Shown one piece after another: positions 6,351 to 62,563 of a DNA stretch of 64,000 nucleotides. The stretch is from Owenia fusiformis (lineage: Eukaryota). Positions within the stretch are counted from its first letter, which is position 1; each line of letters begins with the position of its first letter. Position numbers and translations under genes: made by a program. The stretch covers positions 20,770,001 through 20,834,000 of the forward strand of contig CAIIXF020000001.1 of the NCBI GenBank assembly GCA_903813345.2. Direction: 5' to 3'. A model generated the notes under the pieces. That model was not told the DNA's origin. It was given only the letters and a program-made list of their open reading frames with translations, and made no database searches.

Positions 6351-6563
6351 CTCCTTGTGAAATGAAGTTTTGCGCATTTGGCGCAGTTTGTCTAGTCAAA
6401 GAGGGTACGAAGGAGGCTTACTGCTCATGCTCAGAAACATGTAACAATGTCTTTGCACCCGTGTGCGGGAACGATGAGGTGACATACCAATCTCTCTGCC
6501 ATTTACGTCAAGCTAGCTGCACTCAACAACGCAAGATCAAAGTCAGATCACAAGGCACATGTG
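6351..6563 (+). CDS. AGRN: agrin exon, follistatin/Kazal domain 1 (in window)
   Basis: tttcag|...TGTG|gtaaga; 213 nt, phase 1-1; [13 protein letters not shown]...[16 protein letters not shown]. Confidence 0.92.
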
Positions 6564-18500: not shown

Positions 18501-21500
18501 TCCAGATCTATTTTAATGAAACTTGTGTTTTAAGTCATATGAAATACCCAAGTGGGTTCCGTTATGGTATATTCACATGATATCATATGGTAAATATTCA
18601 TTATCATTTTCGAGAAAAAACCTATTAAGGCTGTTTTTGAATTGCTTTGTTAAGCTATTCCCATAGGGCTTGCTTTGAATTGTACCATTATATGCTCTCA
18701 AAACATAGTTAGTTAGTTTTGGCTTTCTCAACTAGATACAATTTTGTAATTTCATCTATGGCCCTATAACCCACACCATGCAAATTTGTATATGTTCCTC
18801 CAAAACTAAAATGACTTGGTTATAGTTAACTTTTTTGCAACTGTATCATATTGAGTAATCATTTTTGTGTTGATGTGAGTAACAGTTGTTCTGTTGATAC
18901 CTGCTTTACTCCTAAATATTTTGCTAACTATAAGGGGGAAGAGGTTGGCGGCTGCGTAAAGGTCGTAAAGGTAGAATAAGGTCCCATCTTGCCAGGCAGC
19001 AAAGCGGAAGCCTTACCAGAAAGTACATCTCCAAGTATAAAGGTATAAGCAGACGGCTCTGCAGGCACATATCACAAGATCAGCAACCCAAGAACCACAT
19101 AGATCACAGAATTTATTTGAATATATTAGATGCATCCTCGTTGTTGTAAACCATAATTCCACCTAAATTCTACTTTGTTTAGGAATGTGTAATGTAAGAG
19201 CTAATAATTAGCTATTATTAATCAACATATTTGATGAGATGAAGTTTGAATCAAAGAAAATCAGGAAAAAATCTCATCAATAATTTAAACAAAATATTAT
19301 TCTATTTTTTTTATCAAAACACTGTTTCACTGTCAGCCTGCATGTAGCAAGATTGTAGAGATAGTAATCTCAATGGGACCACGGACTATTGCAAGTGACA
19401 CATCTTACCCCAGGGCCCAGAGTCATCACTGCATACACATTTCAATATAAAATATGTGACATGCCAAATCAAAATTTGATATATTCTCCTGGCACTTCCT
19501 TCAAATTTTCTCATTGGCTATTTCATGTTGAACCAGTTAGCTACTAGCAATGTTACCAAATTCTATTTGAGTGGTAGTAATTCATCCACTGGGAACAGAG
19601 ATGATATGAGGCAATTTGAGTCACATGTCCTCTTGCATTCTACATGTCATAAGTAGGGAATATAGATGACATGTCTTACTTTAAACTGGAGTTTGTTATT
19701 CAAGTTGTCAATTTTTGTCACTTTATACTTTTACTGCACCATTTAACACTTCCCATTGTACTTCTTAATGTCTGTATCACCCATGTCACTGGTAGGATCA
19801 CTTGACGTCCAAGCAAATAGCCTATCCCTTTCTGTGTAGCATTCAATGATACATCCTTCTACGTTAATTATAAATGGTTTGGGGAAATGGACACCATTTT
19901 CCCAATGATTTTAGATAAACAAAACATATTGGAATCATTTCTCTGTCTGATAGAACAGAATGTGAATTTATTGTTATAAAATTGTCACACCTGGATCAGA
20001 TTTGGTTTCAATATACCACCGGTCTGTTCATAGACACATCTTCTTTTTTGTATCAAAGTGTTTAATGCTATTTTTGCTTGTGTATGAGACTATGAGTGGG
20101 TATGTATGCCAACACTACTGAGGATCTGGGAAGAATTGTTAATTCAAACCAGAAATGATAAATATATTTTCGATGTCATTGTATCAATGTTTGTCTTATT
20201 GTATTGATGTCATGTTGATTTTACTAATATCACTTATTTATTGATGTCATGTTTATTTTATTCTTACTAATGTCAACATGTTTTTTGACATTAAAATTAT
20301 ATTGATGTAACAATGTATGATGTCATGATATGTTTACAGGAGATGAAGGGCCATGCAGACATCACACATGTAACCATAATGCTATCTGTGTTGTAAGCAA
20401 GGGAAAGGCCACCTGTCAATGTCCATCGTGCCCCAGAGACTTTAGACCAGTAAGTTTGGTTTGGCTTTCAATATTGTGATTTTTTCAGTCAAATGAAGAT
20501 GATGGTTGTAATATTTATAGTTTCAAGTAAAACAATTTTGTTCATGAATATATTGACATTTATGGCCATGACAATTTAGCAAAAATAAGCCAATAAATTA
20601 GCAATGTAATTGTACGGGCCCGAAACCAGGATTTGCCAAGGGGGTTCACTTGCGACAATTTTGGTCCAAAAATGGCAAAAATCACTTAAAAAGTGCTCAG
20701 AATGGTGAAAACTGCATGTTTTTGAAAGATTTTTTGGCCAGGGGGTTCAATGAACCCATCGACCTCGCCCTGGCTACGGGCCTGTTGTATACATAATTTA
20801 TACGACAGTATTATTTCTTGTTTGAGTCACAATTTAGCAGTTTCGTACTCTGATTGGAACTCATTTACCTAATCTTGGGATTTTGGGGATTTGATTGAAA
20901 AGTGTTGTGAGGGTTTTTGATGTCTAAATTTCCCTACCTCATGGAATTTGATTAAATTTTGCTTTTAAATGCACTCATCAAATGCTCTAATTGTTGTAGG
21001 TGTGTGGCAGTGATGGAGTGACTTATGCCAATGAATGCAGATTGAAGTCTGCAGTGTGCGAGAACAAGAAGAAAATAACAGTGCGACACAGAGGAAGATG
21101 CAGTAAGTCATTATTATAAAATCTAACAGCAGACTTTTTAATTACAGCTTTATGATCAATGATTTAAAGTCATTGATTTTTTCTGCATTGTTTTCTCAGT
21201 TTTATTATTAATTAATCAAGTTAAGCTCCTGTGGGGTTTTGGTAACCAATACTTTGTTAATTTTGTTCAAAATACTATGAATTATATGAGGATTTAATTC
21301 AAATGAAGATTTAAAGCGAACAATTCCTATTTCACAAATGCAATACCAGGTCTACTTACAGTGACTTTTAATCAGCGTTGCAGTCATCATAACCTCATAG
21401 TGACCTCGAAATAAAAATATTATCTCGTTGCTTGGAACATTAAAGAATTCCTCTGAGCCCCATGAACAAGACATAAAACAAGTTTTACAATATCTTAAAT

Positions 21501-24500
21501 TGTCCATTACATGTTAATAATTTTTTCAATGTATACATGTAATAAAAAATTTAAATTTAAAAATGGCAAATATAAGGCCGATTAATCAGAAATTTTTCTT
21601 ATATTTTTGGGTTTGATCTAAGCAGTTTACCAATTCATTTTTAATATGTTCATTTGTGAGGAAAATAATATGCAAATTGTATATTTTAGTACAGTAAATT
21701 ATGTAAAATATATAACAAAGTGTTTAACATAGACTTTGGTAAGCTGAGCTTGTAAAGATATGAATAATCACCATCTGGCCAATGTTGTTCACAGATGTAA
21801 TAGCGCACAATAGTACTTTGTATAAAGAAAGTACATTCATCGTTTTGAGATATGAACCACAGCACAATTGTATCACAAAACACTAGGGATGTCAAAAGAA
21901 GCTTCATAATCACTAGGGGATGTCAAAAGAAGCTTTACAATCACTAGCGATGTCAAAAGATATATTATCATCACTAGGGATGTCAAAAGAAACTTTACGA
22001 TCACTAACGATGTCAAAAGATGCATCACAATCACTAGCGATGTCAAAAGATACATCACAATCACTTGGGATGTCAAAAGAAGCTTTACGATCACTAATGA
22101 TGTCAAAAGATGCATCACAATCACTAGCGATGTCAAAAGATACATCACAATCACTTGGGATGTCAAAAGAAGCTTTACGATCACTAGCGATGTCAAAAGG
22201 TCAATCACAATCACTAAGGATATCAAAAGGTACATTACACTAATCACTAGAGATGCCAAGAGAAATTTAAATGATCATGTTGGATTTAACACAAAAGAAT
22301 CACATTGGACTTATCACAAGGGATCACATAACAGCTACACATGCTTCATTCCTACATGGCTTGGCCTATTATCCTATTGTTCTCTGTTACCATGTTCTAG
22401 TGGTTCTGCTGTGGTTTCAGATAGGACAGTAGCATTCAAATCTATTGGAAGAAGCGTAAAGATGTCCTCAATTTTGCTGATGATGTCATGCATAATACAT
22501 TCTCTTGTATCAGTTGCCATGGAGATGACATCATAATGTCTGGAGTACTTTATGCACTAAGAACAAATATATTAATGTCATAAGGATAGTAGTTATTATA
22601 TGGATACAAGTAAGACTGGACTAATAACCAGATTTATATTGATAACATTCGACCAAGAACCCAAATATACTCGATTGGCTGGGATTCAAAATGCTGAACT
22701 AAGAATTTGTTTGACAGCATAAACCAAGGACCTATTGGTTAGAATATTAGGAGACTCGCATAACACTGACTTACATATTCAATAGACCTTTCCAATAAAT
22801 TCTGCCTCCCTTTTTTTAGATGAGGATAAGTTGGCTAGATTGATGATGTCATTGGTTGTTGCTAGCAGTCAGTCCAAGTAAAAATAGGATTTACTTATTT
22901 CTAATTTTTTTGAAAAGTACAACCTAAGACATCATCAATCTAGCCGATATAATTATAAGTTCTTTGATGTATTAAAAGGTGGCACAATTTACTGGAAAGG
23001 TCTATAAGCATGGATAGTACTTGACATTACCATGGCTGTATGGCAGTTAGACAATGTGGAAATAGAACCTTACGTTAAATCTAATTGCTGCGGACTTTAT
23101 GTATATACGAGATTGATTATATTAATAACTCTTTGATTAATATAATGTCATTTTTTATATGAATTAATCATTATTCTTGGACTTGAATAACCCCTTAAAG
23201 TTTTTTTTCACATTCCAATGTTGTGTCACTGTAATTTTCCAGACGTACATCAATGTAATGTTGTATTTATTAGATGAATAAAACATACAATGACTTAGAA
23301 ATTGATTCCCTTTCCACTATGATGTTAATAAATTGGTGTTTTACTAACCTCCTCTGAGAATGTGTACCGTAATTTTGGCACTCTCTTAATCATTTACCCA
23401 TTCACCATGAATAATAATGATTTGTTATATCAACAAACAATGTGAAAGCCAGCTACCAAGTTTATTCTTAATATTTCTTGTTCATGAGTATGTATGTACG
23501 AGGGTTGTCCTAGAAGTTTTTGGTTGACTCTTACCGGTAATCATAATTATTAAGTTGTACAAGGGCCATCTGAGAAGTTTCTGGATGGCTCTTAATCATT
23601 ATTAAATTGTACTAGATGTTTCTGGATTAATCTTCAGCATATAAGGGCTGTTCTAGAAAATCCTGGAAACTCATACTAATGAGAGTTGATCTAGAAGTTT
23701 TTAGAATCACTCTAAAAGTTTTTAGGAGTATTTTTCACATTGATTTAGTATAAACTGGAGTTGGAGTATCATCTTAATATTGTGGCACATGGTATCTTGT
23801 GTGAGATAATTGTAACTCAAATGAAATGAAGTTTTCCTTCAGGCACGTAGCCAGGGAGCAGTTGGATGGGTTTGAGCGAATCCCCCCCCCCCCAGCCAAA
23901 AATTCTTTCAAAATCATGCAGTTTTCCACCATTCTGAGCACTTTTTAAGTGATTTGGGCCATTTTTTTTGTTAAAAGTGAACCCCCCCTGGAACTTTTCA
24001 AAAAGTGACCCCCTTGGCAAATCCTGGCTACGGGCCTGTCCTTGATGGCTTGCTGTCAATTACAACTTAGGAGTTGATAGCAGTGATATCTTAAATTATT
24101 ACTTGATACCCCGAGACAAATTGTCAAAGACTTGTTTCAAATCTTTTCTTGTAATTTTATTGGCACATATATCTGATAAAAATATATTGGCCTGTCTAGA
24201 ATTGACATTCCTTGTCATAATTGTAATTCTTATGAGATCTTTGTCAATTTAAGAGTAATTAATTGAAATTCATTGAAATTTAACATTTGCTATTACATGT
24301 AAAATATATTATTATTGTATTTAGATATATTTTTGTTAGTCTAATATCTTTCTGTGACTTTCAGATGAATGTAAAGATGTGAAGTGTGACTATTATGGTA
24401 TATGTGAAACCAACAGTAAAGGACACACTTGTGTCTGTCCACAAAGTTGTGTCAGTGTAAGTTCACTGTGTATCTTATATATGGCTGTGGCAATGTAATT

Positions 24501-27500
24501 GAGGTTGTGATTCGTATTCATCTATGTGTCAAGTGCCAGATTAAATGTCTTGATTTTGAAATGAAATTACTAATTAGCCTAATGGTAAAAATTTATTTAG
24601 TGTTAATTTTGATGTATAAAAATCTCTAAAGTTGCAGAACTGGAATAATCCCACATTTAACATGGATACATCTTTCAGAAAAATACTTTCACAATTGTAA
24701 AACATCTAACAGATTGAATCCCTTTACTATTTGTTAGGTTGATGCAGCGGTGTGTGGAACAGATGGTAAGACATACCTGAATGAGTGTGAACTGAAGGTG
24801 GCCTCTTGCAAGATGAAACAGCTCATCAAAGTCAGCTCTAAGGGCTCATGTGGTAAGTGTAATGATCACACAGTACTCTCTGATTAAAGCCTCAGTCACA
24901 TTTCCTCTACGGCAGGCATACGGTATATTGAAAATATACATTGTACTGCGTATCCCTATATTTTATGCTGCATATTTCTCTCGATTTTGGGAAACTATAG
25001 CCACCATGTGGTTGCCATAGATGAAATGTGACTAAGATATTACATAGTGTTCATGTTCACTGGGAATGGACTGTGTTTTGATTTTCTCAATTCTTTCTGA
25101 TTGGTATACAGACAGATCCCAAACCAAAGAGTGTAGGTTTTGTAGAAGGTAAATAATGCTCAATAATATGACTTAAGTTAAATGTTACAGGTAAATTTCT
25201 GCCCAGATGTATATTTTTATGGAAGTATTCTTTAATTCAATTCAAGTAGATAAGATAATGTTATTTAAAATTTCAGATATGTGTGCCAATGTCAAATGTC
25301 GCTTTGGCTCTGAATGTGAGAAAGGAAAGTGTGTTTGCCCACAAGGCTGTCCCACAGACTACACACCTGTATGTGGTACTGACGGACAGACCTACAACAA
25401 CGAATGTGAAATGACGAGGTCTGCTTGTGAGAGCAACTTTGAGATCACGATCGAACATGAGGGCGAGTGCAATGAAGTCTCAGGCTCAGGTAAGGACCAT
25501 ATTAGGATGTTTTTCAAGACCATATATGGATGTTTGTCAAGACCATATAAGGGTGTTTGTCAAGATCACAAGAGGGTATACAATAAATTTAAAATAGAGA
25601 CAATTTCTATGATTAAAATACGAGAATAATTAAAATAAAGGAGGGGCCTTCCTCCTTTGAATGATGTCTATATTGCAATAAGTAACTTATGATATCTAGC
25701 TAACTTCAAATATCTTGTAACCATTTGAAATTGAAATATATTTATTTGGACTATTGTACTGAATGAGGCCATTGTTATTTTGTAACTCCAACTTGAATTA
25801 ATGGTGAGTTTCATTATAACAACAGCCAATGTCACAAAGTGAATACATATCTTAATGTCATGTCTCGTGATTAGTTGATGTAAATTTGCATGCTTCATTT
25901 TTTCTTTACTACAGTATAAAAAAGCTGCATGTTCAAATGTTTATGTCATTTGTGGGTCATTGGTTTTTTCCATATTAGTATAAGACATCCTATTTTCTAA
26001 GAACCTTTTTTCTCTTATATACTATTGTACACTGTGTCCTTGTCAAATGTATGTTTCATGTAAATATAAACTTGTGTCCTCTGCATTGTTCTATTCACAT
26101 TTTTTGTAGTTCAGTATGCTATCATGTAAATGAATTTCATGTGCATTAACTAACTGCTATTGGAAAACTAGAAAATGATCATTTTAAAGTGGTTTGTCAC
26201 ACCTAGAAACAAATAAAAGATAACTCATGTAAACTCTTAATCACAACATATTGATGTTCATAGCATTGTATCCATACATGTGTTGGCAATGTATTCATAC
26301 ATGTATACACATTGTAGGCATGCACTTGTTGACATGTTATTCATACCTGTGTTTACCATAATGTATATATACATGTTTTGAGATTGTTTCCACACATGTG
26401 TTGGCAATGTATCTATTCAATACAGCATTGTAGCTATACATATGTGGCTGACATTGTACCCAGACATGTATTTGGTATTGTATCTGTACATGTGTTTATA
26501 TTGTATCCATACATGTGTTGGCATTATGGATACAATAGTTTCTTACATGGATACAATCTAATGTTCTTGTGTGTCTCTTTCTTCCTTTCTATCTGTGCTG
26601 TATTATAAGACTAAACATGTAGATGCCTTACCAGGTAAACATCTATTGATCTTACTACAAATTAACTATTGAATCAACATTTACTAACTTCTACATTACA
26701 TTTATCACCACGTTCTCTTTCATGTAAATGCTTCTTTAAAACACTACTGGTCATAACATTGTTAGCTTTCTTATAGCTCAAGAATTTGGGGCCTAAATGT
26801 TGCCACGACAATAATTCACATAATACCCTTTGTTCTCATTCTACTTCATTACTAACTCTATAAAGCTTTGTAACATCTGACCCGTAGCCAGGGGGGTTCA
26901 GAGCTAACCATCTCTGGCCAAAAACCTTTTCAAAAGCATGCAATTTTCACCAGTCTTAGCGCTTTTCAAGTGATTTTGGTTTAAAATGGTCAAGTGTGAA
27001 CCTCCATGGATTCCCTTGGCAAAAGCTGGCTATGGGTCTGTGACTAATGACTAATGTAAATAATACCATTAACATCTAACATTCTCTTATATGTTTGGTA
27101 CTGTCTGGTGCCATTTTCTGAATTAAGCATGTGATGTGATACTTATTTATATTAAGGTTCAGGAGCTGGTATGTGTGACGAGACAACGTGTCAGTTTGGT
27201 GGAGAGTGTGACATGGATGCAGAGGACATTGTGTCAGTCTGTGTCTGTAACTTCAACTGTGAGGCCCTCAGGTAAATCATACCATATATACACTTTACAT
27301 CAGTTTCAAAAGTGTATATCAGTTACTCTGGTTCAGAGCCTGATTACTGGACTCTTAAGCCTCAGTCAGATTTGCCCTACAGCGCCCGTAGCTTCACAAA
27401 ATTGATATAGAAAATCTACATTGTACTGCAATCCCTATATTTTATGCTGCATATTTCTTTCTATTTTGGGAAGCTATGTGTATGGTAGTCGTAGATCAAA

Positions 27501-42500: not shown

Positions 42501-45500
42501 CTTATGTGGCCAGCCTCTAGAGATATCATCACTGGATCTGAAATAAGTGAGATTTCCACTGAAAACCTTTATTTTGACACTTATTCTTAGCCTGATAAGG
42601 AACAAACATGAGAAATTAGCTACTTGTAAAGATGTAAAATACAAAATAGATATTATGTAAATTTTCTGCCTAAATGATCTAAAATGTTAAGGATTAAAGC
42701 AATGTGAAGTCACAATAAAAGCATAGATGTTTACTAAGTTAGTACAAATTAAACAATGGGTTACTATTGTTGTCCATACAATATAGTTATCCTGAGATTG
42801 TGTGTTTCAGGTGAGTGTGGTGGGGACAATCCCTGTGCCAGCATGCCCTGCATGAACATGGGCTCCTGCATGAGACTCGATAAACGCAACTTCAAGTGCG
42901 TCTGCCCCAAAGGCTTTGAAGGTAAATACTGTCTACCCTCAATGATAATAGCACCAATAGCACCAGGATTTATAAGGTTTGAAATTTCACATGAGTATGG
43001 CAATTTATAAATGCTTTTAAGTAGGTTTAGTAGATTTTTCTCACTAGTGTTACTTGTAGTTGTCCAATCTACAATATAATATGTGTGTGTTGCTTAAAAC
43101 CTGTGTTTTGACCAGTATATTGTTTCAGTTTGAAAAGTAATTCTATAATTCAACTTCCCTGGAATATATTGGATGAAATGTACTTACTGTATTTTATATC
43201 GCTGTTAGGTTCTGTGTGTGAGAGAGGAGAAGACAAGTGCCAATCAATGCCATGTCATCACGGTGCTACATGTCGCAGTGTACCAAATGGAGACTTCATG
43301 TGTGAATGTCCTAAGGGCTGGAAGGGAACATTCTGTGAAACTGGTACAATTTACCATTTTTGTATCGGAGTTAGGCTCATCTTTTTTTATTTATCTAGTC
43401 ACATCTCATTATGTCTACACCTCATGTCTCCTCATTGCTGCTAATGTAATATTTTTGTGCAGTTAAATGATAATTCTCTTTAATAAAACTGAAATACATG
43501 TATAGCTCTCTATGTCTGTCGTGTTGAGTATCTCAATGTTTGTTGTGTTTTGGAGGAAAGGCCTATTTCACCACATTTGTTTAAAATTTTAATTTGAATG
43601 TAGACACATACCTTGGTATAAAAATAATAAGTTATGTTGATTCCAGAGACAAAAGGCGGATTAGAGGAGGTCATGGTCCCAGAATTTAATGGTCGCTCCT
43701 ACTTGGTCCAACCACTTAAAGGAAAATTTGCCAGACACATAGACCTGGAAGTATGGTTCTTGGCCAAAACGTCAAATGGTAAGGCAACATTTTGTGATTG
43801 ATATAATTTTTTATACTCCAAATATCTTTAACTTGATTTTGATACATGTACAATTTTTATACATTTAGCCCCAAAATCCATCTAAGTTTGAATCCTTGTA
43901 TTAGGAGGAATGCATAGGAATCATATTTTAAATTTGTTATTTTATTTAGGAATGTTGCTATATGTTGGACAGCAACCAGATGGAAAAGGTGACTTCCTCT
44001 CTCTAAATTTGGTCAATGGACACCTACAGTTCCGGTTTGACCTTGGGAGTGGACATGCAAACATCACGTAAGTCTGAGACATAAAGCAAACACATAAATC
44101 TGACATATACCTTCATGACTCCATTGAGCATTGGATATATCTAACAATTCCAGTCCGTGATATCTTGGATTGTGAGATTTTTCTGACCATGAAGTCAGCT
44201 GTAATGTATCTTTTACATCCATCCATTATATCTAACCAAAATATACAATAATGATTATGTTAATAGGACTCTGATAATAAAAGGGGCAATTAACCCATCA
44301 TCATACTTTTTCCATGACTTTGATTTCATATCCACCATAAAGGTAATCTTTAGTTAGGAAGGTTAGGCTTAGAAATGCTCCATGTATTATATGATATATT
44401 CAAATTATAGGACAACAAGTGAACATGACTGTATAGTACTATGATTTTACCTATTAGTTTCATGTTAGTGATTATATCTTAAAATTGAACTGTCTTTAGG
44501 AGCTCTAGTCGTATCCCACTAAATGTGTGGCATCGTGTACAACTGGACCGAAACAACAGGAAGGGGAGTATTTCTATCGATGGAGGTCCAAAAGCAGTTG
44601 GATCTGCTGGGGTAAGTTCACCTCTTTCACTGTTTTGCTCCTCAAATGGGCCAAGCAAAATATCAATGTTTTTGTGAGACTAGTTATTCTAGGAGAATAT
44701 ATAAAGCCAGATTTTTCTCCAGAAGAACATTATTGAGTGATATCCCACATCGATTCGAATTATATACGGTTTAAGGAACAGGAGGACGTAGATCTTACTG
44801 AATTGCACAAAAAACATTGAAATTATGACCTGGCCTGATCATGTTGTATAGTAATCGCTCATCTTTGCTTTGTGCTACAACTGTGGTTTGCTTAAATGGA
44901 CAGGGGTCAATAAAATGTAACTAATTTTGATTTTATGATAAAATAACATATTTTGCTGGAACTCAGTGATTTGATCAGACACCTTCCACATACAATAACA
45001 ATGTTCACCTTAATGATGTTGAAGTAGAAAATACTATTATAGGAATCATCAATGAATTATGGTATCTGTATAACTTGCTTCATACTGCTTTACTGTCAAC
45101 TCCTAATAAACTTGACAAAAACCACATCATGATCTTCCAACAGAATATATGACTTAATGACATTGGTTCCGATCATGAGATTATGTGATCAACAATAAGT
45201 GGCCAAGCTTAGTATTGTTGAATATTGTGTGATTCAAATTTTTTATACCTCATAAAATGCTGCATGTACTTCTGCAATATTAAATGTCACACTCTCAAAG
45301 TTGTTGGTAATATCATTAATAACAAATCTTGAGACCATTGCCATTTAATGATTAAACACTCTTTTCAAAGTTTTGTCTTATAAATGAGCGCATGAAATAA
45401 ATATTTCTTGTTGTCTTTAATTGGTACATATTCAGAAGGTATAGTATAGTGTAACATCAAAGTCAAAGCTTTTCCTTCTATTTCATTTCTAGGACCAAGT

Positions 45501-48500
45501 GGTATGTGCATTAGAATTTTATTTGGCTCAAGAAAATAACTAACTGAGCAAAAATAAGTGGAACCAAGAACAGGGGTAGTATCCAAGCGACAAGAGGCCC
45601 TCTTGCAATACTTATATTGTGTTGTCAAATACTGGTATAATTGGGATATAGCACATGGTACTGTGATGTAAAAATAGGCCATGATTTCTTGGATACTACT
45701 TGTAAAAAATCTCCTGTGAATAATAATAAGAAGAATGTTGTTTGTACAAAATCCATGCACATATACATAATGCACAAATCAAAAGTTATTTAATGAACAG
45801 AGGCCATTTAGTTTTTTCATCAATTGCAGTAATGATCCAATCGAATTTCTTCTTTGTGCATGACATAGCCCTCCTTTGTAACAGTAAAACTTGTATATTG
45901 GAATACTTATCCTAAGTTCAGACCCCACACCTTCTTTTGGGCCTATTCTAACTCTCATATTGTCAGGACTTCATAAATAAACATCATTTTCCTAGTCTGA
46001 ATTGTGACGAAACAAAAAGAATGAGCTGGCTGTTCAGGTGATTAAAATGTTTTGTTTTTTTTCTTTTCGCTGATCAATATAATCCTACATCATTTTTCCT
46101 ACAGTAAAATAAATATCATGTCTTGCATGCTCCATCTAATACATTTCAAGTTGCTGAGTTGATCAATGGTTCTTCACTGGTGCAAGTCACCAGGGGTATT
46201 CACATTAGACAAGTTTTACTGTTTTATCGCTATGTATTACTCAAGGGTATGATCTTGTTCACCCCCCTGTGTCCGCTTGATTTATCTTATTGTACATCTT
46301 CGTAAAACATGTTACTTTGAATGTTTAGTAATTGGTATTAGTACTGTGTACTAGAGTTGGAGATCTTCGTTCGATAAATATGCCCAAATATGGGCTTGCA
46401 AAGCTCTAAGCGTTTTGTCTGTTCTCATAAACTCGGGTGACAGCATTGTAAATGGCATTTAGCACTTCAAAGCATTTTAACATACATCTCTACAGTCTCC
46501 CTAATAAATATGGTATAAAAATGATACATATGTATAGAAAGAATAATTATTTAAGTCACTCAGTTATATGTATTTTGTATTTCTATTTTGTATTTCTTGT
46601 ACAAATTTTGTTAATTCACTGATTTATATAAATTGCAGAAAGAGCATTGAAAACATTTAAATAAACTATCGTTCTAAAATAGTTACTTCTATGTATTTTT
46701 AAATCTCAACAAGTACATGTAGCACTATGGTTATTATATTTTGAGTGCATGACAAATGTAGTATATAATCTATTTATATGATTAATAACATATGGCACAC
46801 CCTGTATATCTTGATACACCTTATATAATAAATGTAACTAAATCACAGATTTTACAAATATTTTGAATGCTTAGTTTGTTGCATTTTTGATATAATATTG
46901 CTAAATTCCAATTACTGGGCCCAGTTGTTTGAATGTCAAATTAATAGTGGTTTTGATCAACTGGCCCCAGTACTGATACAATGTACAGGGTTTCATCAAC
47001 AGTAGTTTTTGAGCAGAGATACACAACATTTTTGAATGATCTAATTTAATAAAGTGTTAAGGTACTTACTTTTAAATGAACTGAATCCCACACATTGCTT
47101 CAAAATTGTTAAAGTCTCAAAGTAAAACATCATATTTTACTTTACTTGTGATTACAATAATAACCAGAACAACGGCAACGCCAAAGCGTAGCGAATCCCA
47201 TCGAACAGAAATGGCTGGCATTTTTACAAATAAAGCGCAAATATCATAAAACAACACACCAGAAAGGCCACCATTTTCAAAATGGTTACTCACTAGTCAA
47301 GTTGTCATCAGAAGAAATAATATGCTTTTAAGTAGCCACCTCTAAAATTTTTTGAAAAATCGCACACGTACTTGTTAAATAACACACGTAAAAATGGTGG
47401 CCATTTTTCAAAATGGCCGACTACTCCCCAAAGTTTTATTAGACAATGTGCCATGCTTATAGTATTCACATACCAAATATGAACAAAATCGCTCTACTAC
47501 TTTTCGAGTTATAGTAAAATACGTTTACATGGCGGTCATTTTTCAAAATTGTTTTCAAAATGGCCGCCTTCTACCAAAAGTGTCATAGGACAGTGTGCCA
47601 TGCTTATAGTATTCACATACCAAATATGAACAAAATCGCTCCACTACTTTTCGAGTTATAGTAAAATACATCATTAAAATGGCGGCCATTTTTCAAAATT
47701 GTTTTCAAAATGGCCGCCTTCTACCAAAAGTGTCATAGGACAGAGTGCCATGCTTATAGTATTCACATACCAAATATGAACAAAATCGCTCCACTACTTT
47801 TCGAGTTATAGTAAAATACGTTAAAATGGCGGCCATTTTTCAAAATGGCCACCTTCTACCAAAAGTGTCTTTAGACAGTGTGCAATGCTTATAGTATTCA
47901 CACACCAAATATAAACAAAATCGCTCCACTATTTTTAGAGTTACAGCAAAAATCGTAAAATGACAAGTAAAGGCCGCCATTTTTCAAGATGGCTGCCATG
48001 TGCTTTTTAATATCTACATTTGTAGTATTATTAATGTCCTTTATAATATTTTTTACATTTAAAACATATTGCTATTACAGTTTTACATATTGCACCTAAA
48101 TTACTGTAAAATCGTCACTAAAATGGCCGCCATTTTGAAATGAGCGGCCATTTTGAAAATTGGCTTTCGAGCAGAACTTCTACCTCCATAGGGTATATGT
48201 GTACGAAATATGAACAAAATCGGGCCAACGGTATTTGAGTTATTGCCCGGACGGACGGACGGACAGACGGACGGACGGACAGACGGACGTACGTACGGAC
48301 GGACGGACGGACGGAGGCGTTCCCTATATCCCTCCGAACTTCGTTCGATGGGATAATGAATGTGAATGTGAAAGTATTGAATAGCATAACATTGTAGAGT
48401 GTTATTGTATCTGTAGGGCAATCTGAAAGACTTGAACTTGGGACCTGACCTATACATTGGAGGCTTTAAGAGCAAGAATCAACTCAGTCCAGACTCAGGG

Positions 48501-51500
48501 GTGACAACAGGATTCAACGGGGCCATACAGAGGGTAAGTACAGGCTCATGCATAGCCATAGTAAAACATGGTAAATGGATGATATAAATTAATGCATGTA
48601 TAACCATATTTGAGGTAGCTGTGTTCATTGTGTCAGTTTGTGTATTTTCTGAAGATTTTTCAGTGTCTTATAAGTCACCTGATCTTTAAAGTCCTCGCTC
48701 TTGCTATACATCTACTATCATTCAAAGGAGTGACTAATCTATAGCTCTGGTTTTATAACATATTGTTAGCTCATTCATGTCGTCACTGTGTTTCACATCA
48801 GCTCTACTCATCATAAATTTTGTGTAATGGATGGGTAGGATTAAGCCTTTCTCTTGACTATAAACTGTGAAAACCATTATGAACGCCTTGCTCATTTAGA
48901 AAAATTCATTTTCAAAAAATCTGTTTCATTAACAAGAGTAGATGTGTGGTCAAATAGATTATATGCAGAATTTAGTGTGAAACATGAAAGGCCCCTCTGT
49001 TAGCTCCCTAACCATAGCATACATGTATGTACTTGTTCACCTCTAGGTGTATGTGAATGGACGTCAGATTGATGACCTTGTGAAGGGGGCTATAGAGAAG
49101 GAGTTGATCACTCCCTATGTGGGTCCCCCTTGTATGGCCTCTCCCTGTCTCAATGGAGGCGTATGTGTCCCTATAATGAATGAAGCCAAATGTAAATGCC
49201 CAATGAAATTCACAGGGGACAGATGTGAGAAATGTAAGTTCATTCACATTTTACAAAAGACTTCAAAACATTGTACTTATTTAATGCTTATAATCTTAAA
49301 TCCTGAAGCAACAGTAGGTACATTTGTCGGTCTGTTTTCTAATCATTCACAGATTGTGACATTTTGTTAAAGGAATATTCCTTGCCAGACCCTTTCTCTC
49401 TTGATATGGTAGCTATAATCATATATATAGTTTCCATATTTAGCAAAACATGGGAAAATGTTTTAATATGGTCAATATTGATCATTTAAAAATCTTGTGC
49501 TTATTTCCAGTGAGCTGCCATCTTTTAAGATTTCTTGCAGGAAGTGATGTCATCAACTCTCAACTTCTATAACCTTGCCCATAACAGTATAGGAAAGTAG
49601 CACAAATTCACTTCTAGACAAGTGATCATTACTTTCTGTGCAAAAATAGTTCCAGGGCTTGTCAACTTAGAATAAAAGAATAGATTTTCAGAAGGATTAA
49701 ATAAGATGCAAAGTTGAAAAAGAATATTTAGCTGGTTTTGTAATTCTTAATAGCTCCTCACCTAATGCAATATGCAAAGTTGAGAGTCGATGACATCACT
49801 TCCTGTGTGAAATTTTAAAAGATGGCAGCTTACTGGAATTGAGCAAAAAAGTGATCAAATTTGACCATATCAAAACATTTTTGCGTGTTTGGCTAAACAT
49901 GGCAAGCATATATATGGTTATAGCTACCATATGAGGAGAGAGATGGTTTGGCAAGGAATATTCCTTTAATACATTACTAAATCATATCTCTTGATATGGA
50001 ACTGTAATATGATATCGAAACTGCATTCTGATACTCATAGCATCTTTCTGTTTCACCTGAAACATGATCTCAGGGCTGAGAAGATTTGAGATGTCATGGT
50101 TTATCATGATGTCGAAACTGTAATATAGAGAGAAGATAGCACAGTACAATAATTGTATTTTTGGTGATTGTTATTTCAGCCACTGACTCTGTTGACACTG
50201 ACCAACCTGTAGCATTTGATGGAAAGACCCAGCTTATGTACCCAAATATGGTGACAGAGAGGTAGGCATTTCACATCATTCATATTTTTCTATTGTCAGG
50301 CAGTAATATTTTTTTTGTTTTTGTCTCCACTTTAGTTTTATGCTTCTTGGTTTAAAATCTAGACCCTGGTAGTTTCGAGCAAGCTTTGCAAATGATAAGG
50401 AAACCAATTTGAATTTTACTTCCTCAAAATTGTGTGTTGCCAGATAAAACATTTAACGTGAAATATATAAGACATTCAAATGTTCGAAGATGCTTCTTGA
50501 TGTGACTACCAGGACATAATACATTTTTGAGTATATTGAGTGTTTACTTAATAAGGTGCAATGTCAATATCTGGGTATCCCACTGTATGCCATAGACCTG
50601 GGATGAATATACTAAACTATGCTAATCCCTCCATAGGCATCTTTCATGTGCAAAATATATATGTATATATAATTTCAGAGCACGAAGTCAGAAGGAAAAT
50701 AAATTCGAAGTGGTATTTAAGACTGAGAAGGACAATGGGCTGATCCTGATGCAGAACAAGGGTGACAATGTGAGGGGAGACTATGTAGCTATAGCCCTAG
50801 CAAGTGGTAAAGTTCAAGTCAGCTACAACCTTGGCAAGAACTCTGAGAAAGATCTACATGTTATCAAGAACCCAACTAAAGTGAATGATGAAAAATGGCA
50901 CACATTGACCTTCACAAGGTGAGGATACGTTAATGATAAATAATTGAGACAGAAAACAAGAGTGGAAAAATACTTTAGAGAATGCATTCCATTTGTTTAA
51001 GAATGACGGTGAGTTATTATCCCCTTTGCTTGGTGTTAGTGTCACAAGCACAGAAAGTCAGCATGATGCTCTTGTGTTATTTCTATTATCCAATAGTCAA
51101 CACTGTCTACATTCCTACTATAGTAATTACCTGTCATTTTGAAAGAGAAATGTCAATAGTTTTGTTGAATACCATGCTAATGATGGATTGCAATGTTCTC
51201 CCAATGATCTTTACTCCACTTGCTGCAAAATTTTCAGGAACATATTCTGACCAAGAAATGTTTTCTATCCAAAGTTTTCATTTCCAAATTCCCAATCCAT
51301 TTTAACAGGGGTAGCACTGGGTTGGTTCAAATAGGTGATTACTTACTCTGTTGTGTTGAGATCTAAGTGCCCAGTTGAAGTATTAAAGATTGTTTTGAAT
51401 GAAGAATGATTATTTGTGTCTCTAGGGAAAAGCGTAAGGGCATCCTGGTGATTGATGGTGGCACACCTGTGGAAGATGAATCCCCCAAGGGTTCAACATC

Positions 51501-52006
51501 TCTTGATTCAGATGGAGACCTCTGGATTGGTAAGTTGACTCATAATATAATGAAGGCCTTCATAAACAAACACATGTATTTGTTGCACAATGTCTAACTT
51601 CATTTCTTAGAATAAAGCATTAGCATGTATAGTATTGGGTGTCATTCTATGTTTGGAACCTAATAATAGACAATCATAAAGTGAAAACTTGTCAAAACTT
51701 ATTGTAGTTTCATGTTATTTTATGCAAGCTATTGCGTTTTCTTGTTTTGAAACACTGTCCATTTTCTTTTCACTTTTTTTAGGAGGTAATCCCAACCTCC
51801 CCGAGGGTCTACCCAGAGCATACACACGAGGCTTCAAAGGCTGCATCAAAGAGGTTCAAATTGACGGTGTTCAATTACACCTTGTTGACCACAGGGAAAA
51901 TCATACCTCATTGAAATTCTGTGAGGCAAAGGACTCCAAGAGACGGAGAAACACAGTAAACTCGAGGAGAAGAAGACCAGGATTACGAAGGCATAAGCTG
52001 TATTAG
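6351..52006 (+). CDS. AGRN: Agrin (5'-partial, multi-exon; 36 traced exons, about 1950 aa in window)
   Basis: Domain order FS/Kazal x8, laminin-EGF x2, FS9, spacer, EGF, LG1, EGF x2, LG2, EGF, LG3 is diagnostic of agrin. All traced exons have AG/GT boundaries with compatible phases; stop TAG at 52004-52006. Confidence 0.95.
6700..6845. mobile_element. Tc1/mariner-like MITE remnant
   Basis: ends ...tgggacaccctg|TA; a related end is at about 59750-59763. Confidence 0.4.
6926..7119. mobile_element. MITE with 5-bp TSD AATGC
   Basis: perfect TIR CATGGGCGTAGCG / CGCTACGCCCATG. Confidence 0.75.
9415..9651 (+). CDS. AGRN: agrin exon, FS/Kazal 2
   Basis: ccag|...G|gtatgt; 237 nt; [14 protein letters not shown]...[16 protein letters not shown]. 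Confidence 0.92.
12744..13265. mobile_element. foldback MITE with CACTG termini, ~200-bp imperfect arms and 5-bp TSD ATTGT
   Basis: CACTGTTCCACAACTAGTTACTTTGA / TCAAAGTAACTAGTTGTGGAACAGTG. Confidence 0.8.
14255..14984 (+). repeat. 49-bp minisatellite, 15 copies, overlapping an agrin splice acceptor
   Basis: unit accaacaacatgtgttacagATCCATGTAAAGACCATAAATGTAACATA; exact 49-bp period 14272...14958. Confidence 0.95.
14959..15174 (+). CDS. AGRN: agrin exon, FS/Kazal 3
   Basis: ttacag|...GAAG|gtgagt; 216 nt; [14 protein letters not shown]...[14 protein letters not shown]; its acceptor is the last unit of a 49-bp array. Confidence 0.9.
15935..16110. repeat. ~38-bp tandem repeat (~4 copies)
   Basis: acaagttaccatggttattccagttaccattataattc. 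Confidence 0.8.
17689..17904 (+). CDS. AGRN: agrin exon, FS/Kazal 4
   Basis: aacag|...TGTG|gtaagt; 216 nt; [14 protein letters not shown]...[14 protein letters not shown]. Confidence 0.92.
18935..19042 (+). CDS. AGRN: candidate alternative agrin exon, highly basic 36-aa insert
   Basis: ctataag|...AAAG|gtataa; 108 nt, phase 1-1, no stop; [38 protein letters not shown]-richer than the flanking intron. Confidence 0.5.
20340..20449 (+). CDS. AGRN: agrin exon, FS/Kazal 5 N-half
   Basis: ttacag|...CCA|gtaagt; [17 protein letters not shown]...CPRDFRP. Confidence 0.9.
20615..20784 (+). mobile_element. MITE (CAGGCCCGTAGCCAGG family) with 5-bp TSD TTGTA
   Basis: TIR and internal similarity to 23840-24038 in the opposite orientation. 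Confidence 0.75.
21000..21102 (+). CDS. AGRN: agrin exon, FS/Kazal 5 C-half
   Basis: tgtag|...A|gtaagt; [15 protein letters not shown]...RGRC. Confidence 0.9.
21880..22258. repeat. 30-bp minisatellite (~12 copies)
   Basis: tcactagcgatgtcaaaagatacatcacaa variants. Confidence 0.93.
22782..23005. mobile_element. MITE with long imperfect TIRs
   Basis: ATAGACCTTTCCA...TGGAAAGGTCTAT plus internal inverted ggctagattgatgatgtc/gacatcatcaatctagcc. Confidence 0.65.
23840..24038 (-). mobile_element. MITE (CAGGCCCGTAGCCAGG family) with 5-bp TSD TCCTT
   Basis: TIR CAGGCACGTAGCCAGG / CCTGGCTACGGGCCTG. Confidence 0.78.
24365..24456 (+). CDS. AGRN: agrin exon, FS/Kazal 6 N-half
   Basis: ttcag|...AGT|gtaagt; [13 protein letters not shown]...CVCPQSCVS. 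Confidence 0.9.
24738..24852 (+). CDS. AGRN: agrin exon, FS/Kazal 6 C-half
   Basis: gttag|...G|gtaagt; [19 protein letters not shown]...KGSC. Confidence 0.9.
24889..25037 (+). mobile_element. ~150-bp MITE (Harbinger-like), copy 1
   Basis: gcctcagtcacattt...aaatgtgact; near-identical core at 27359-27512. Confidence 0.6.
25277..25489 (+). CDS. AGRN: agrin exon, FS/Kazal 7 plus start of Ser-Gly cluster
   Basis: tttcag|...CAG|gtaagg; 213 nt; ends ...CNEVSGS. Confidence 0.92.
26623..26634 (+). CDS. AGRN: candidate 12-nt agrin microexon (DALP)
   Basis: long pyrimidine tract about 26564-26594, catgtag|ATGCCTTACCAG|gtaaac; phase 1-1, frame-preserving. Confidence 0.5.
26877..27040 (-). mobile_element. 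decayed copy of the same MITE family
   Basis: cccgtagccagg...ctggctatgggtctg with shared internal motifs. Confidence 0.6.
27157..27271 (+). CDS. AGRN: agrin exon, FS/Kazal 8 N-half
   Basis: attaag|GTTCAG (alternative in-frame acceptor at 27163)...AG|gtaaat; [18 protein letters not shown]. Confidence 0.88.
27359..27512 (+). mobile_element. ~150-bp MITE, copy 2
   Basis: TIR GCCTCAGTCA / TGACTGAGGC. Confidence 0.65.
27724..27839 (+). CDS. AGRN: agrin exon, FS/Kazal 8 C-half
   Basis: gctag|...A|gtaagc; [17 protein letters not shown]. Confidence 0.9.
28243..28395 (+). CDS. AGRN: agrin exon, lustrin/WR1-type Cys-rich module
   Basis: tgtag|...CAG|gtaaac; 153 nt; [32 protein letters not shown]...GRCCF. 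Confidence 0.85.
28806..29124. mobile_element. piggyBac-like MITE
   Basis: TTAA|CCC...actgc // gcagta..GGG|TTAA. Confidence 0.5.
29179..29271 (+). CDS. AGRN: agrin exon, Cys linker before the laminin-EGFs
   Basis: tgtag|...A|gtaagt; 93 nt; [26 protein letters not shown]. Confidence 0.9.
30062..30223 (+). CDS. AGRN: agrin exon, laminin-EGF 1
   Basis: tttag|...C|gtaagt; [15 protein letters not shown]...[19 protein letters not shown]. Confidence 0.93.
30851..30994 (+). CDS. AGRN: agrin exon, laminin-EGF 2
   Basis: aacag|...C|gtaagt; [23 protein letters not shown]. Confidence 0.93.
31385..31850. repeat. 30-bp minisatellite (~15 copies, alternating 60-bp higher-order pattern)
   Basis: tcattggtgcaatatggcacccccacccaa / ttattggtgcaatatatcacccccatccaa. 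Confidence 0.9.
32050..32311. repeat. two short ~27-bp tandem repeats
   Basis: gtactcacaaat x4; ttttcccagagagtattgcaatgtaaa x3. Confidence 0.8.
33199..33258 (+). CDS. AGRN: candidate 60-nt alternative agrin exon
   Basis: TACTAAC branch point 33165-33171, pyrimidine tract, ctag|...AAG|gtttgg; phase 1-1; [20 protein letters not shown]. Confidence 0.55.
34829..35071 (+). CDS. AGRN: agrin exon, FS/Kazal 9
   Basis: tgtag|...A|gtaagt; 243 nt; [13 protein letters not shown]...[15 protein letters not shown]. Confidence 0.92.
35416..35637 (+). CDS. AGRN: agrin exon, Thr/basic linker plus EB/EGF-like module
   Basis: tccag|...C|gtgagt; 222 nt; RRTRKVTRH...[25 protein letters not shown]. Confidence 0.85.
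36186..36497 (+). CDS. AGRN: agrin exon, acidic/PE spacer plus EGF
   Basis: tttag|...C|gtaagt; 312 nt; [14 protein letters not shown]...GFKCKC. Confidence 0.85.
36855..37358. mobile_element. foldback MITE with ~95-bp TIRs flanked by TTAA
   Basis: ggctttgtataaaaaacctcctacctcatacccacc... mirrored at about 37265-37356. Confidence 0.8.
38130..38174 (+). CDS. AGRN: 45-nt Lys/Arg-rich agrin exon (probably cassette)
   Basis: strong pyrimidine tract, tgtag|...GATC|gtatgt; phase 1-1; [15 protein letters not shown]. Confidence 0.72.
39188..39370 (+). CDS. AGRN: agrin exon, acidic/Ser-Thr spacer (probably cassette)
   Basis: tgtag|...AAG|gtttgt; 183 nt open, phase 1-1; [34 protein letters not shown]. 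Confidence 0.75.
40070..40417 (+). CDS. AGRN: agrin exon, PE/T-rich spacer plus EGF
   Basis: tttcag|...G|gtgagc; 348 nt; [13 protein letters not shown]...GFLCLC. Confidence 0.85.
41254..41355 (+). CDS. AGRN: agrin exon, Ser/Thr/Pro-rich (probably cassette)
   Basis: ttctag|...TAG|gtagca; 102 nt, phase 1-1; [24 protein letters not shown]. Confidence 0.65.
   Translation, partial: RLRWLLWPHSPQQTLLLYQLHLQPQWKSLIIQP
41737..41938 (+). CDS. AGRN: agrin exon, LG1 part 1
   Basis: ccag|...CG|gtatgt; [12 protein letters not shown]...LLLYNGQ...GDFISI. Confidence 0.93.
42088..42300 (+). CDS. AGRN: agrin exon, LG1 part 2
   Basis: ccag|...GA|gtaagt; YDLGSG...WHRV...[10 protein letters not shown]. Confidence 0.93.
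42410..42546 (+). CDS. AGRN: agrin exon, LG1 part 3
   Basis: tatag|...A|gtgaga; GLVGCVQSL. Confidence 0.88.
42811..42921 (+). CDS. AGRN: agrin exon, EGF
   Basis: tttcag|...G|gtaaat; 111 nt; [14 protein letters not shown]...[11 protein letters not shown]. Confidence 0.9.
43209..43343 (+). CDS. AGRN: agrin exon, EGF
   Basis: gttag|...G|gtacaa; 135 nt; [13 protein letters not shown]...[13 protein letters not shown]. Confidence 0.9.
43647..43778 (+). CDS. AGRN: agrin exon, LG2 part 1
   Basis: ccag|...G|gtaagg; [10 protein letters not shown]...LEVWFLA. Confidence 0.9.
43950..44067 (+). CDS. AGRN: agrin exon, LG2 part 2
   Basis: tttag|...AC|gtaagt; GMLLYVGQ...GKGDFLSL...FRFDLGSG. Confidence 0.92.
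44500..44611 (+). CDS. AGRN: agrin exon, LG2 part 3
   Basis: tttag|...GGG|gtaagt; [24 protein letters not shown]...GSAG; phase-0 end. Confidence 0.92.
45493..45501 (+). CDS. AGRN: candidate 9-nt agrin microexon (DQV) in LG2
   Basis: gcttttccttctatttcatttctag|GACCAAGTG|gtatgt; phase 0-0. Confidence 0.62.
47162..48357 (-). mobile_element. HINE/DINE-1/pearl-like element with 4 core repeats (~135-150 bp), (GGAC)n microsatellite and terminal palindrome
   Basis: core units at about 47448, 47595, 47745 and 47880; (GGAC)n about 48248-48315; palindrome tatccc..gaacttcgttc..gggata. Confidence 0.75.
48417..48533 (+). CDS. AGRN: agrin exon, LG2 part 4
   Basis: ctgtag|...AGG|gtaagt; [16 protein letters not shown]...GFNGAIQR. 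Confidence 0.92.
49047..49233 (+). CDS. AGRN: agrin exon, end of LG2 plus EGF
   Basis: ctag|...T|gtaagt; [13 protein letters not shown]...[14 protein letters not shown]. Confidence 0.92.
49371..49965. mobile_element. Kolobok-like MITE with TTAA TSD and long imperfect arms
   Basis: TTAA|AGGAATATTCCTTGCCA ... TGGCAAGGAATATTCCT|TTAA. Confidence 0.8.
50180..50261 (+). CDS. AGRN: agrin exon, LG3 part 1
   Basis: ttcag|...AG|gtaggc; [18 protein letters not shown]. Confidence 0.9.
50679..50918 (+). CDS. AGRN: agrin exon, LG3 part 2
   Basis: ttcag|...AG|gtgagg; [30 protein letters not shown]. Confidence 0.92.
51426..51529 (+). CDS. AGRN: agrin exon, LG3 part 3
   Basis: tctag|...G|gtaagt; [16 protein letters not shown]. 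Confidence 0.92.
51783..52006 (+). CDS. AGRN: agrin last coding exon, LG3 end plus basic tail
   Basis: ttttag|[22 protein letters not shown]...LKFC followed by an Arg-rich tail and TAG. Confidence 0.92.
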
Positions 52007-56691: not shown

Positions 56692-57246
56692 TTATTGGGG
56701 GTAGGGCATGTGTCCTGGGGGCGGTGGGTACGGTGCCCCAGTCGGTGCGTCATACGAAGCTGCAGCAGCCACCCCCTCGAAGCCTATGCCTATAGGAGGC
56801 CCGGGTATGGCAGCCGCTCCATCGAAACCGACAGATGGCCCTGCTCCAAACTGTGGAGCCGAAGGGCCTGCTCCCAGTTGCTGATCCGGTGGGAGTGTGC
56901 TGGCTATGGCTTCCATCCATGCATTCAAGTCATTGATGTGTTCACATAGGATCCAGTGAATTTTCTTCTTTTTCAACGCCTGCGGTATAGAAATGAGATT
57001 GTATACTGAAGCCTCGGGTGGTAACATCGGTCGATCTGGAAGCGATGTTTTATCACCTACCGCAATGTAATATGCTATGTTTTTCAAAAGAACAGTTCCC
57101 TTGTCTTTTGTATCACCCGGATTCTTATACCATGTGAGTGTACTGTCCGAGTAAAGTACAAAATAATTTTTCTTCCATTTATCCTCTTTATCTAGGATAC
57201 TACCCTTTCCATATCTAAGAAGATATCCAGTTTTTACCGTTGTCAT
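56692..57246 (-). CDS. PH-domain protein with Pro/Gly/Ala-rich tail (evectin/PLEKHB-like), 184 aa, single coding exon
   Basis: VKTGYLLR...WKKNYFVLYSDSTLTWYK...KGTV...DLNAWMEAI is a canonical PH pattern; acceptor ttgtag immediately before 57260; ATG at 57246; AATAAA at 56551-56546. Confidence 0.85.
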   Translation of the reverse strand: MTTVKTGYLLRYGKGSILDKEDKWKKNYFVLYSDSTLTWYKNPGDTKDKGTVLLKNIAYYIAVGDKTSLPDRPMLPPEASVYNLISIPQALKKKKIHWILCEHINDLNAWMEAIASTLPPDQQLGAGPSAPQFGAGPSVGFDGAAAIPGPPIGIGFEGVAAAASYDAPTGAPYPPPPGHMPYPQ

Positions 57247-57537
57247 TATTGCTTTGTGACCTACAAGATGTGGCAACAAGATGATCCAAGTAATCTAAAA
57301 CTGGATGAAGTGATATCAAAAGATTGTCATGGAGTCAAACTTATGACGTCAGATTTATCCTATTATCTCTTATTTTCTGGGAATGAGTAGGCCTACCAAA
57401 CTCAAGTCCACTCGAGACCAACCAAAGGTATGGCAAGGGCGTTGCAAATCCCAGTTATCTAGTAAAACACCAGGTAAGAACTGTTACATCTTACAATAAA
57501 AAAACAAGGCATTAAGATGAAAAATGTCAGAACCTAC

Positions 57538-62469: not shown

Positions 62470-62563
62470 CTCTTCACATATAATGGAGGGAGTTTTGCGT
62501 TTCTTCTCATCTTGCAGTCGTTGTTTGACAAAATCAACAACTTCTTGACTAGTTAGACAGTTC
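62470..62563 (-). CDS. PPM1G: PPM1G-like penultimate exon
   Basis: ccag|...GAG|gtaaga; NCLTSQEVVDFVKQRL...IICEE. Confidence 0.88.

Follow-up and report, generated by a model that had tools for sequence, protein, structure and literature searches.

A lophotrochozoan agrin gene in Owenia fusiformis with a few candidate alternative exons

The window analysed here, a 64-kb stretch of Owenia fusiformis DNA (64,000 nucleotides (nt) of contig CAIIXF020000001.1, assembly GCA_903813345.2, positions 20,770,001 to 20,834,000), is AT-rich (~33% GC) and carries an agrin-like gene on its forward strand; all coordinates below are those of the window. Inspection of the letters alone (hereafter the sequence-only reading) had recognized an invertebrate agrin and had proposed that seven short intronic intervals are regulated alternative exons, which together would form a combinatorial splice code of charge and glycosylation. 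We find that 33 exons chained by splice sites and phases encode a protein of 1852 amino acids (aa) with no internal stop and without any of the seven. Pfam matches on 27 of the 31 scanned open reading frames (ORFs) are ordered as is typical for agrin: eight follistatin (FS)/Kazal units, a Lustrin-type Cys domain, two laminin-EGF (LE) domains, a ninth FS and an EB module are followed by two exons that each combine a linker with an EGF domain, the series LG1-EGF-EGF-LG2-EGF-LG3 (LG, laminin G) and a basic tail. The domain order, the stop-free exon chain and the names of the homologues all bear out the identification, and we assign the locus to a lophotrochozoan orthologue of agrin.

Two arrangements expected of agrin are both present, namely about nine FS/Kazal domains with two laminin-EGF domains ahead of the last FS, and the C-terminal alternation of EGF and LG domains. 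Kazal matches fall on eight ORFs, with two further follistatin units each split across two exons; EGF_laminin is matched twice; and Laminin_G is matched on eight ORFs interleaved with EGF. A SEA domain flanked by Ser/Thr-rich regions, which agrin would also be expected to carry, found no match among the scanned ORFs; its place is taken by the EB module, as in mollusc orthologues, and among the homologues listed the SEA family (PF01390) is confined to two fish agrins. The C-terminal region is collinear with proteins named agrin (35–47% identity over ~700 aa). The best homologues are named agrin or agrin-like, the closest being that of the chiton Liolophura (54% identity over the N-terminal half), followed by those of Patella, the nemertean Lineus, spiders, Haliotis and bivalves. 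One of the hits, P0230, belongs to a different multi-Kazal protein (27–52% identity). No match above 57% identity was returned by the representative protein search, and no significant match to the species' own agrin by protein searches with exon translations (551 and 2 candidates). A tblastn search of the window with the first 150 homologues yielded nothing significant upstream of FS1 (6351), which would place the N-terminal NtA/TM exons beyond the window start. The gene model is complemented by direct observation of its splicing: ten junctions between 29271 and 48416 are confirmed by RNA, all of them GT..AG.

The seven intervals (Table 1; named below by their first positions) had been described accurately. 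All of them have AG/GT borders, a length divisible by three and a frame that is open in the phase set by the flanking exons; adding any single one to the 33-exon backbone introduces no stop; and each is located between domains or at the LG2 loop. The skewed composition ascribed to them is likewise real, as the net charges, the Ser/Thr content and the position of DALP within a Ser-Gly run attest. Since the modular exons around the candidates are all in phase 1-1, any combination would remain in frame.

Table 1. Features of the agrin locus. The last column gives the number of candidates with splice scores equal to or better than those of each proposed exon in the real introns and, after the slash, in shuffled introns; zero counts in shuffles overstate significance, because the score is crude and pyrimidine tracts are lost on shuffling.
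Feature	Coordinates	Strand	Description	Equal-or-better candidates (real/shuffled)
Agrin-like gene backbone	6351..52006	+	33 exons chained by splice sites and phases	
Proposed basic cassette	18935..18970	+	between FS4 and FS5; net charge +6	127/112 (mean)
Proposed 12-nt cassette, DALP	26623..26634	+	Ser-Gly linker FS7/FS8, inside SGS/GAG	15/17.3 (mean)
Proposed 60-nt cassette	33199..33258	+	between laminin-EGF 2 and FS9; net charge +1	3/0
E15, acidic linker + EGF exon	36186..36497	+	one of two copies of the orthologues' single pre-LG1 EGF exon	
Transcribed 1241-nt block	38130..39370	+	one X3 contig, 1243 nt, depth 225.9	
Proposed basic cassette, phase 1-1	38130..38174	+	net charge +9	2/0
Proposed acidic cassette, phase 1-1	39188..39370	+	62 aa, net charge -11	4/2.5 (mean)
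E16, Pro/Glu-rich linker + EGF exon	40070..40417	+	second copy	
Proposed Ser/Thr/Pro-rich cassette	41254..41355	+	between EGF and LG1; 34 aa, 12 Ser/Thr	43/38 (mean)
y-site intron of LG2	44612..48416	+	3805 nt; RNA junction, alignments	
Candidate 9-nt micro-exon DQV, phase 0	45493..45501	+	LG2 loop, vertebrate y (A) site position	1/0 (in 30 shuffles)
z-site intron of LG3	50262..50678	+	417 nt, directly after N-M-V motif	

RNA mapping covered the span 28541–48540, which takes in five of the seven candidates and, on either side, the flanks of the 9-nt one; the mapping shows a background polymorphism of roughly 1–3%. Run X1 is DNA-like, and run X3 combines spliced RNA contigs (depth 1200–3500) with low-depth genomic-like contigs. 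Among the junctions listed for this span, skipping was seen for 45493 only and use of outer sites for 38130 and 39370 only, so that for none of the five exons there were inclusion and skipping junctions both seen. One departure from the backbone is the transcribed block 38130–39370. The X3 contig aligns to the genome with eight other letters and four gaps, its first base being the first base of the proposed exon 38130–38174 and its last base the last base of the proposed exon 39188–39370, and it overlaps the upstream intron contig by exactly 30 nt (38130–38159), the overlap that a branch in a k=31 graph should leave. Because the contig starts and ends exactly at these positions, acceptor 38130 and donor 39370 are used in RNA, and we hold them with high confidence to be splice sites in use. 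Neighbouring spliced contigs have depths of 1200–2500, against 225.9 for the block. The 1013 nt between the two proposed exons are retained in the contig, which represents the dominant form, with no branch at 38174 or 39188: no use of a donor at 38174 was seen in RNA, nor of an acceptor at 39188 in X3, where the contig runs straight through. Read unspliced, the block ends its frame after 17 codons, at ...NKKDRM; spliced from 38174 to 39188, it stays open and would encode a basic segment and then 61 acidic residues in frame.

The claim of regulated alternative exons is thereby upheld as far as the low-depth use of acceptor 38130 and donor 39370 goes, but not as to clean cassettes, the inclusion of which is absent from the RNA junctions listed. 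We propose that 38130–39370 is a real alternative region that is left out of most transcripts. The sampled form may reflect intron retention or detention, or else a poison exon, and would stop translation early; alternatively, it could be an intermediate on the way to a longer linker between the two EGF exons, in which case clean excision of the middle 1013 nt in some tissue would insert two segments in frame, the first basic and the second acidic. That 38130 and 39188 serve as two clean cassettes we put at slightly worse than even odds.

A further candidate concerns the sites at which vertebrate agrin itself is alternatively spliced. Vertebrate agrin carries two splice inserts, y (A), which is KSRK in LG2, and z (B), of 8, 11 or 19 aa in LG3; the y insert alters heparin and dystroglycan binding, and the pair is a textbook example of how the activity of a matrix protein can be switched by very small exons. 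Both alignments and the RNA junction 44610>48416 place an intron of the Owenia gene at the homologous loop position of LG2: following ...GSAG, it aligns with GESP[KSRK] in Polypterus, GESP[GGQSNNVPE] in Branchiostoma, KAP[EPPRAQ] in Haliotis and EAT[FVNYV] in Biomphalaria. The z-site intron likewise interrupts PNMVTE/RARSQ at the point that aligns with the z8 site of the Polypterus isoform. In these alignments both introns prove positionally homologous to those of other agrins. Within the y-site intron, 45493 has an acceptor score of 6.9 and the donor GTATGT (6.0); it is the best among candidates in all introns and the only intronic one to reach both values. No basic, heparin-binding insert of the KSRK type was found at the y site, where the candidate insert is DQV; the mollusc and amphioxus y-site inserts are likewise not basic. 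A scan of the 417-nt z-site intron for a micro-exon of the N-x-I/V type gave only poor sites or hydrophobic peptides. We regard 45493–45501 as a plausible micro-exon. Bulk RNA skips it, and its use, should it be real, is probably confined to particular cell types, where it would add three residues to the LG2 loop that carries KSRK in vertebrates. The chance that it is used somewhere appears to us close to balanced, tilting against.

The y-site intron also contains a repeat (~46550–48357) over which raw-read RNA depth exceeds 1000, mostly on the opposite strand. Between the end of this repeat and the LG2 exon at 48417 lie 60 nt, and related copies of the repeat occur at ~1404–1753; a second repeat, at ~36545–37880, is heavily covered as well. 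With the likeness threshold for reads set at 90, repeat-derived reads were admitted at 36.5–37.9 kb and 46.5–48.4 kb.

Both candidates bear on a rival reading that denies all seven a role as functional coding cassettes: the region would encode essentially one protein, with 38130–39370 being noise or a cryptic exon of the nonsense-mediated decay type and 45493 a chance match. Such a reading would account for a backbone that is complete without the seven exons, for the early stop in the sole transcript form seen for 38130–39370, for the fact that only skipping is seen at 45493 and for the lack of any orthologue sequence similar to any of the seven. However, noise would hardly hit two predicted splice sites, separated by 1241 nt, with such precision, and 45493 combines a full pyrimidine tract with a GTATGT donor in the one intron that has an optional segment in four other lineages. 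We consider this reading unlikely, albeit a serious competitor to the one favoured here, in which the block is alternative and the micro-exon plausible.

Splice signals were compared with chance by scoring acceptors on pyrimidine content and donors on consensus match, and by counting the frame-preserving candidates of 9–200 nt that scored at least as high as each claimed exon in the 32 real introns and in 30 shuffles (Table 1). Four of the seven (18935, 26623, 41254 and 39188) do not rise above chance in this count against shuffles. At thresholds typical of constitutive exons, four candidates are found in all introns: 39188 accounts for two of them, through alternative donors, 45493 is the third, and the fourth is unrelated to the seven. 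The individual sites are uneven. The acceptor of 38130 scores 6.6 and the donor of 38130–38174 is GTATGT; 33199 has a strong acceptor, a weak donor (GTTTGG) and a peptide unlike a linker; the donor of 41254 is weak (GTAGCA); and the acceptor of 18935 scores 2.8, lacks a pyrimidine tract and has CTAAC just 11 nt from its AG. We regard 18935 as probably not an exon.

The sequence-only reading had further held that the introns hosting the seven tend to be long and to carry ACTAAC and TGCATG motifs. The host introns are indeed long (1319–3834 nt, against a median of 442 nt for the other 26 introns), and ACTAAC occurs five times within 250 nt of the seven exons (~0.9 expected), four of the five downstream of exons; TGCATG, however, is not enriched in the same intervals (2 against ~2.1 expected from a gene-wide density of 0.61 per kb), and four other long introns (2514–5307 nt) are without any claimed exon. 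Longer introns also yield more chance candidates, and the ACTAAC excess may be circular, as this motif may have entered into the choice of the candidates in the first place.

RNA separates the remaining candidates further. Over 32543–33876, the stretch that holds 33199, X3 depth is ~5, which is intronic background, compared with 1200–2500 in exon-bearing spliced contigs, and 33199 is absent from every well-covered X3 contig. For 41254, the X3 bin depth is compatible with inclusion, although depth reported as a flat mean per contig lacks the power to prove it. Inclusion of 41254, E15 or E16 as read from bin depth was set aside, since contig depth is a flat mean and the raw reads number one to few. 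That 41254 is used somewhere is a tentative proposition, the balance leaning against it; use of 33199 is improbable, that of 26623 more so, and that of 18935 least probable. Most likely, 33199, 26623 and 18935 are chance AG...GT open frames in long introns.

Collectively, these results favour, with a probability that we place at roughly 0.55, an agrin gene of which the backbone needs none of the seven intervals, with 38130–39370 an alternative region, 45493 a plausible micro-exon, 41254 undecided and 33199, 26623 and 18935 chance occurrences. The earlier observation is thus partly confirmed and its interpretation partly supported. What we infer, as distinct from the splice-site use and y-site skipping observed directly, is that any short exon is included and that charge, glycosylation or the binding of ligands is affected. 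The more ambitious original interpretation, that all seven are regulated cassettes whose combinations set the charge and the glycosaminoglycan and O-glycan load of agrin in an independently evolved splice code, would fit their preserved frames, their location in linkers and loops, their skewed composition, the uniform 1-1 phase of the surrounding modular exons and the many predicted isoforms of related invertebrate agrins. It is nonetheless highly improbable, given the chance-level splice signals of 18935, 26623 and 41254, the lack of coverage of 33199 in X3, the skipping of 45493 in every junction listed, the failure of 38130 and 39188 to appear as separate exons and the unremarkable frequency of TGCATG, as well as the finding, detailed below, that cassettes recurring in other species (after FS3, at y, at z and in the FS8-Lustrin block) are mostly at other junctions. 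That a charge and glycan code tunes heparan-sulfate binding is pure conjecture.

Several points weigh against our assessment. The junction 44610>48416 skips 45493 (X3 contig depth 2527; three X17 reads), and among the junctions listed for 28541–48540 no read or contig contains 45493, the splice 38174>39188, 33199 or 41254 as a spliced exon. The splice score is crude, and shuffling, by destroying natural pyrimidine tracts, flatters strong acceptors. For 18935 and 26623, which fall outside 28541–48540, the judgement draws solely on the sequence and on comparison with orthologues. Coverage of the gene by raw RNA reads is low, ~1–3x in runs X15 and X17; 15 of 338 junctions are listed, and minor ones may exist beyond these; contigs lose rare variants, and dips in contig depth, which is given as a flat mean, are unreliable; and the tissue and stage of the RNA runs are unspecified.

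Outside the seven intervals, the locus offers further candidates for alternative use. Eight of eight orthologues checked have a single EGF ahead of LG1, of which the Owenia gene has two copies, E15 and E16; the EGF portions of the two share 44% identity (E = 1e-10) and resemble the orthologues' EGF to about the same degree. Because both are in phase 1-1, tandem use, skipping and mutually exclusive use would all be in frame. Two overlapping Rbfox-type words, TGCATGTGCATG, are located at 40032–40043, 27–38 nt upstream of the E16 acceptor. Read depth at E16 is below that of neighbouring exons, on the basis of about one read per raw run, for which dips are unreliable. At the start of LG1, the acceptors 41737 and 41752 are 15 nt apart and both in phase, allowing a possible five-residue difference (VKFSV); the RNA contig there begins at 41766, inside both options. 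The segment 27163–29271, which encodes FS8, the Lustrin-type Cys domain and the next Cys-rich piece, corresponds to a 159–173-aa block that is optional in the isoform sets of Haliotis, oysters, Biomphalaria and Littorina; in the window, the junction 29271>30062 is confirmed by RNA.

LG3 is followed by a strongly basic C-terminal tail (51920–52003). Among the 22 aligned homologues, only one other (P0013) extends past LG3, with a shorter tail. The Owenia tail could provide a built-in heparin-binding end. Ahead of the gene's first exon in the window, ~900 nt of imperfect short tandem repeat (4075–4978) encode HPSI-type runs in all three frames and show a C-over-G skew of -0.45. Downstream of agrin, two unrelated genes are found on the minus strand: an exon with a PH domain and a Pro/Gly-rich tail (56692–57294) and exons of a PP2C phosphatase (61852–63457).

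To place these candidates among other agrins, we aligned RefSeq predicted isoforms of ten lophotrochozoan taxa and amphioxus within each set and mapped the variable blocks onto the gene model; these isoforms are automated gene models, not published experiments. Small optional segments recur at exon junctions in Haliotis, Biomphalaria, Crassostrea/Magallana, Babylonia, Littorina, Dreissena, Lineus and Branchiostoma, and the highest isoform labels are X19 in Lineus and, in Branchiostoma hybrids, X33. At the FS3 junction (after 15174), an optional segment of 12–19 aa, of the type G.I..G..(D/E)(D/E)Y, is found in Haliotis, Crassostrea, Magallana, Biomphalaria and Lineus; the single Patella sequence has a similar segment, which is absent in Liolophura, Babylonia, Littorina and Solemya, and no counterpart of this FS3/FS4 cassette was found in the corresponding window intron (15175–17688, 2514 nt). 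After FS7, an optional GD is present in Haliotis, and the SG linker is variable in length among orthologues. Entire FS domains are optional in some isoform sets, as is the EB module in Liolophura. At the junction of LE2 and FS9, the position of 33199, Dreissena has an optional 6 aa. Optional segments at the y site comprise EPPRAQ (6 aa) in Haliotis, FVNYV (5 aa) in Biomphalaria and GGQSNNVPE (9 aa) in amphioxus, and those at the z site AMDLEQ and DN in Babylonia (P0293/P0292), NLM and KELGPSA in Littorina (P0298/P0295) and ESNSIREQ in amphioxus; the z-site inserts of Babylonia and Littorina, both caenogastropods, have no clear N-x-I/V motif. The Polypterus (bichir) isoform carries KSRK and the z8 insert at the same two columns as the y and z introns of the window.

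The comparison supports small, frame-preserving cassettes in linkers and LG loops as a real feature of invertebrate agrins, seen in predicted isoform sets, and multi-site optional splicing of agrin is already visible in the public gene models of molluscs and other invertebrates. In this respect the expectation drawn from the Owenia sequence stands, but the recurrent cassettes are mostly at junctions other than those of the seven. The 18935 junction shows no insert in 12 aligned orthologues, except for a 4-aa difference in a Lingula-cluster protein; no comparable insert occurs at the 33199 junction in 12 aligned orthologue isoforms, and none at the 41254 junction in the isoforms aligned there. 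Consistently, tblastn of the first 150 homologues against the window gave no significant intronic match, and no orthologue sequence resembles any of the seven. Our literature search retrieved no paper on mollusc or annelid agrin isoforms, although such papers may exist.

Previous work treats the y and z inserts as vertebrate or chordate features (PMC1939731 and PMC12445529). In PMC12445529, Z micro-exons are reported from Ciona and amphioxus and from neither nematode nor sea urchin, are termed a chordate innovation and are associated with a conserved N-x-I/V motif just before the z site. The assertion that the Owenia isoform system was independently elaborated is doubtful for the y site, where the intron occupies the position of the vertebrate, amphioxus and two gastropod genera's cassettes: a candidate position shared with chordates is therefore unlike an independent invention. 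If the y-site micro-exon were true, it would, together with the gastropod y- and z-site segments, point to splice-regulated LG loops in the ancestor of protostomes and deuterostomes, or else to repeated reinvention at the same LG loop. A bolder version, in which the y-site micro-exon is an ancient bilaterian device and 45493, restricted to certain cell types, forms with 38130/39188, 41254 and E15/E16 a multi-site repertoire of isoforms as the protostome counterpart of the chordate neural/non-neural switch, seems to us decidedly unlikely. At present, the sequence lengthens the list of agrin genes by one, with a small number of exons that are candidates for alternative use.

Set beside known systems, the Owenia gene resembles vertebrate agrin in having introns at both homologous positions, y and z; its y intron also contains a 9-nt candidate with strong signals that keeps the frame. 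The Polypterus segment GESP[KSRK]DQHTELNL aligns with LG2 of the window, but the candidate insert DQV is not a basic heparin-binding motif. N-M-V just before the z intron of the window matches the remark on N-x-I/V in PMC12445529. The agr-1 gene of C. elegans encodes an invertebrate agrin with FS, EGF and LG domains like that of the window, but with only two LG domains; neither alternative splicing nor, by PCR, B/z exons were found in it, according to PMC1939731. Closer to the pattern originally proposed is Branchiostoma, in which 14 aligned isoforms include an optional FS-FS linker segment, PRNP (4 aa), in an SG-rich linker, optional segments of 10, 16 and 29 aa in the Ser/Thr region, 9 aa at the y site and 8 aa at the z site, although these isoforms are chordate and annotated, whereas the exons of the window are candidates. 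The agrins of other lophotrochozoans share their domain order with the Owenia gene, and their optional segments map onto its junctions at y, at z and between LE2 and FS9.

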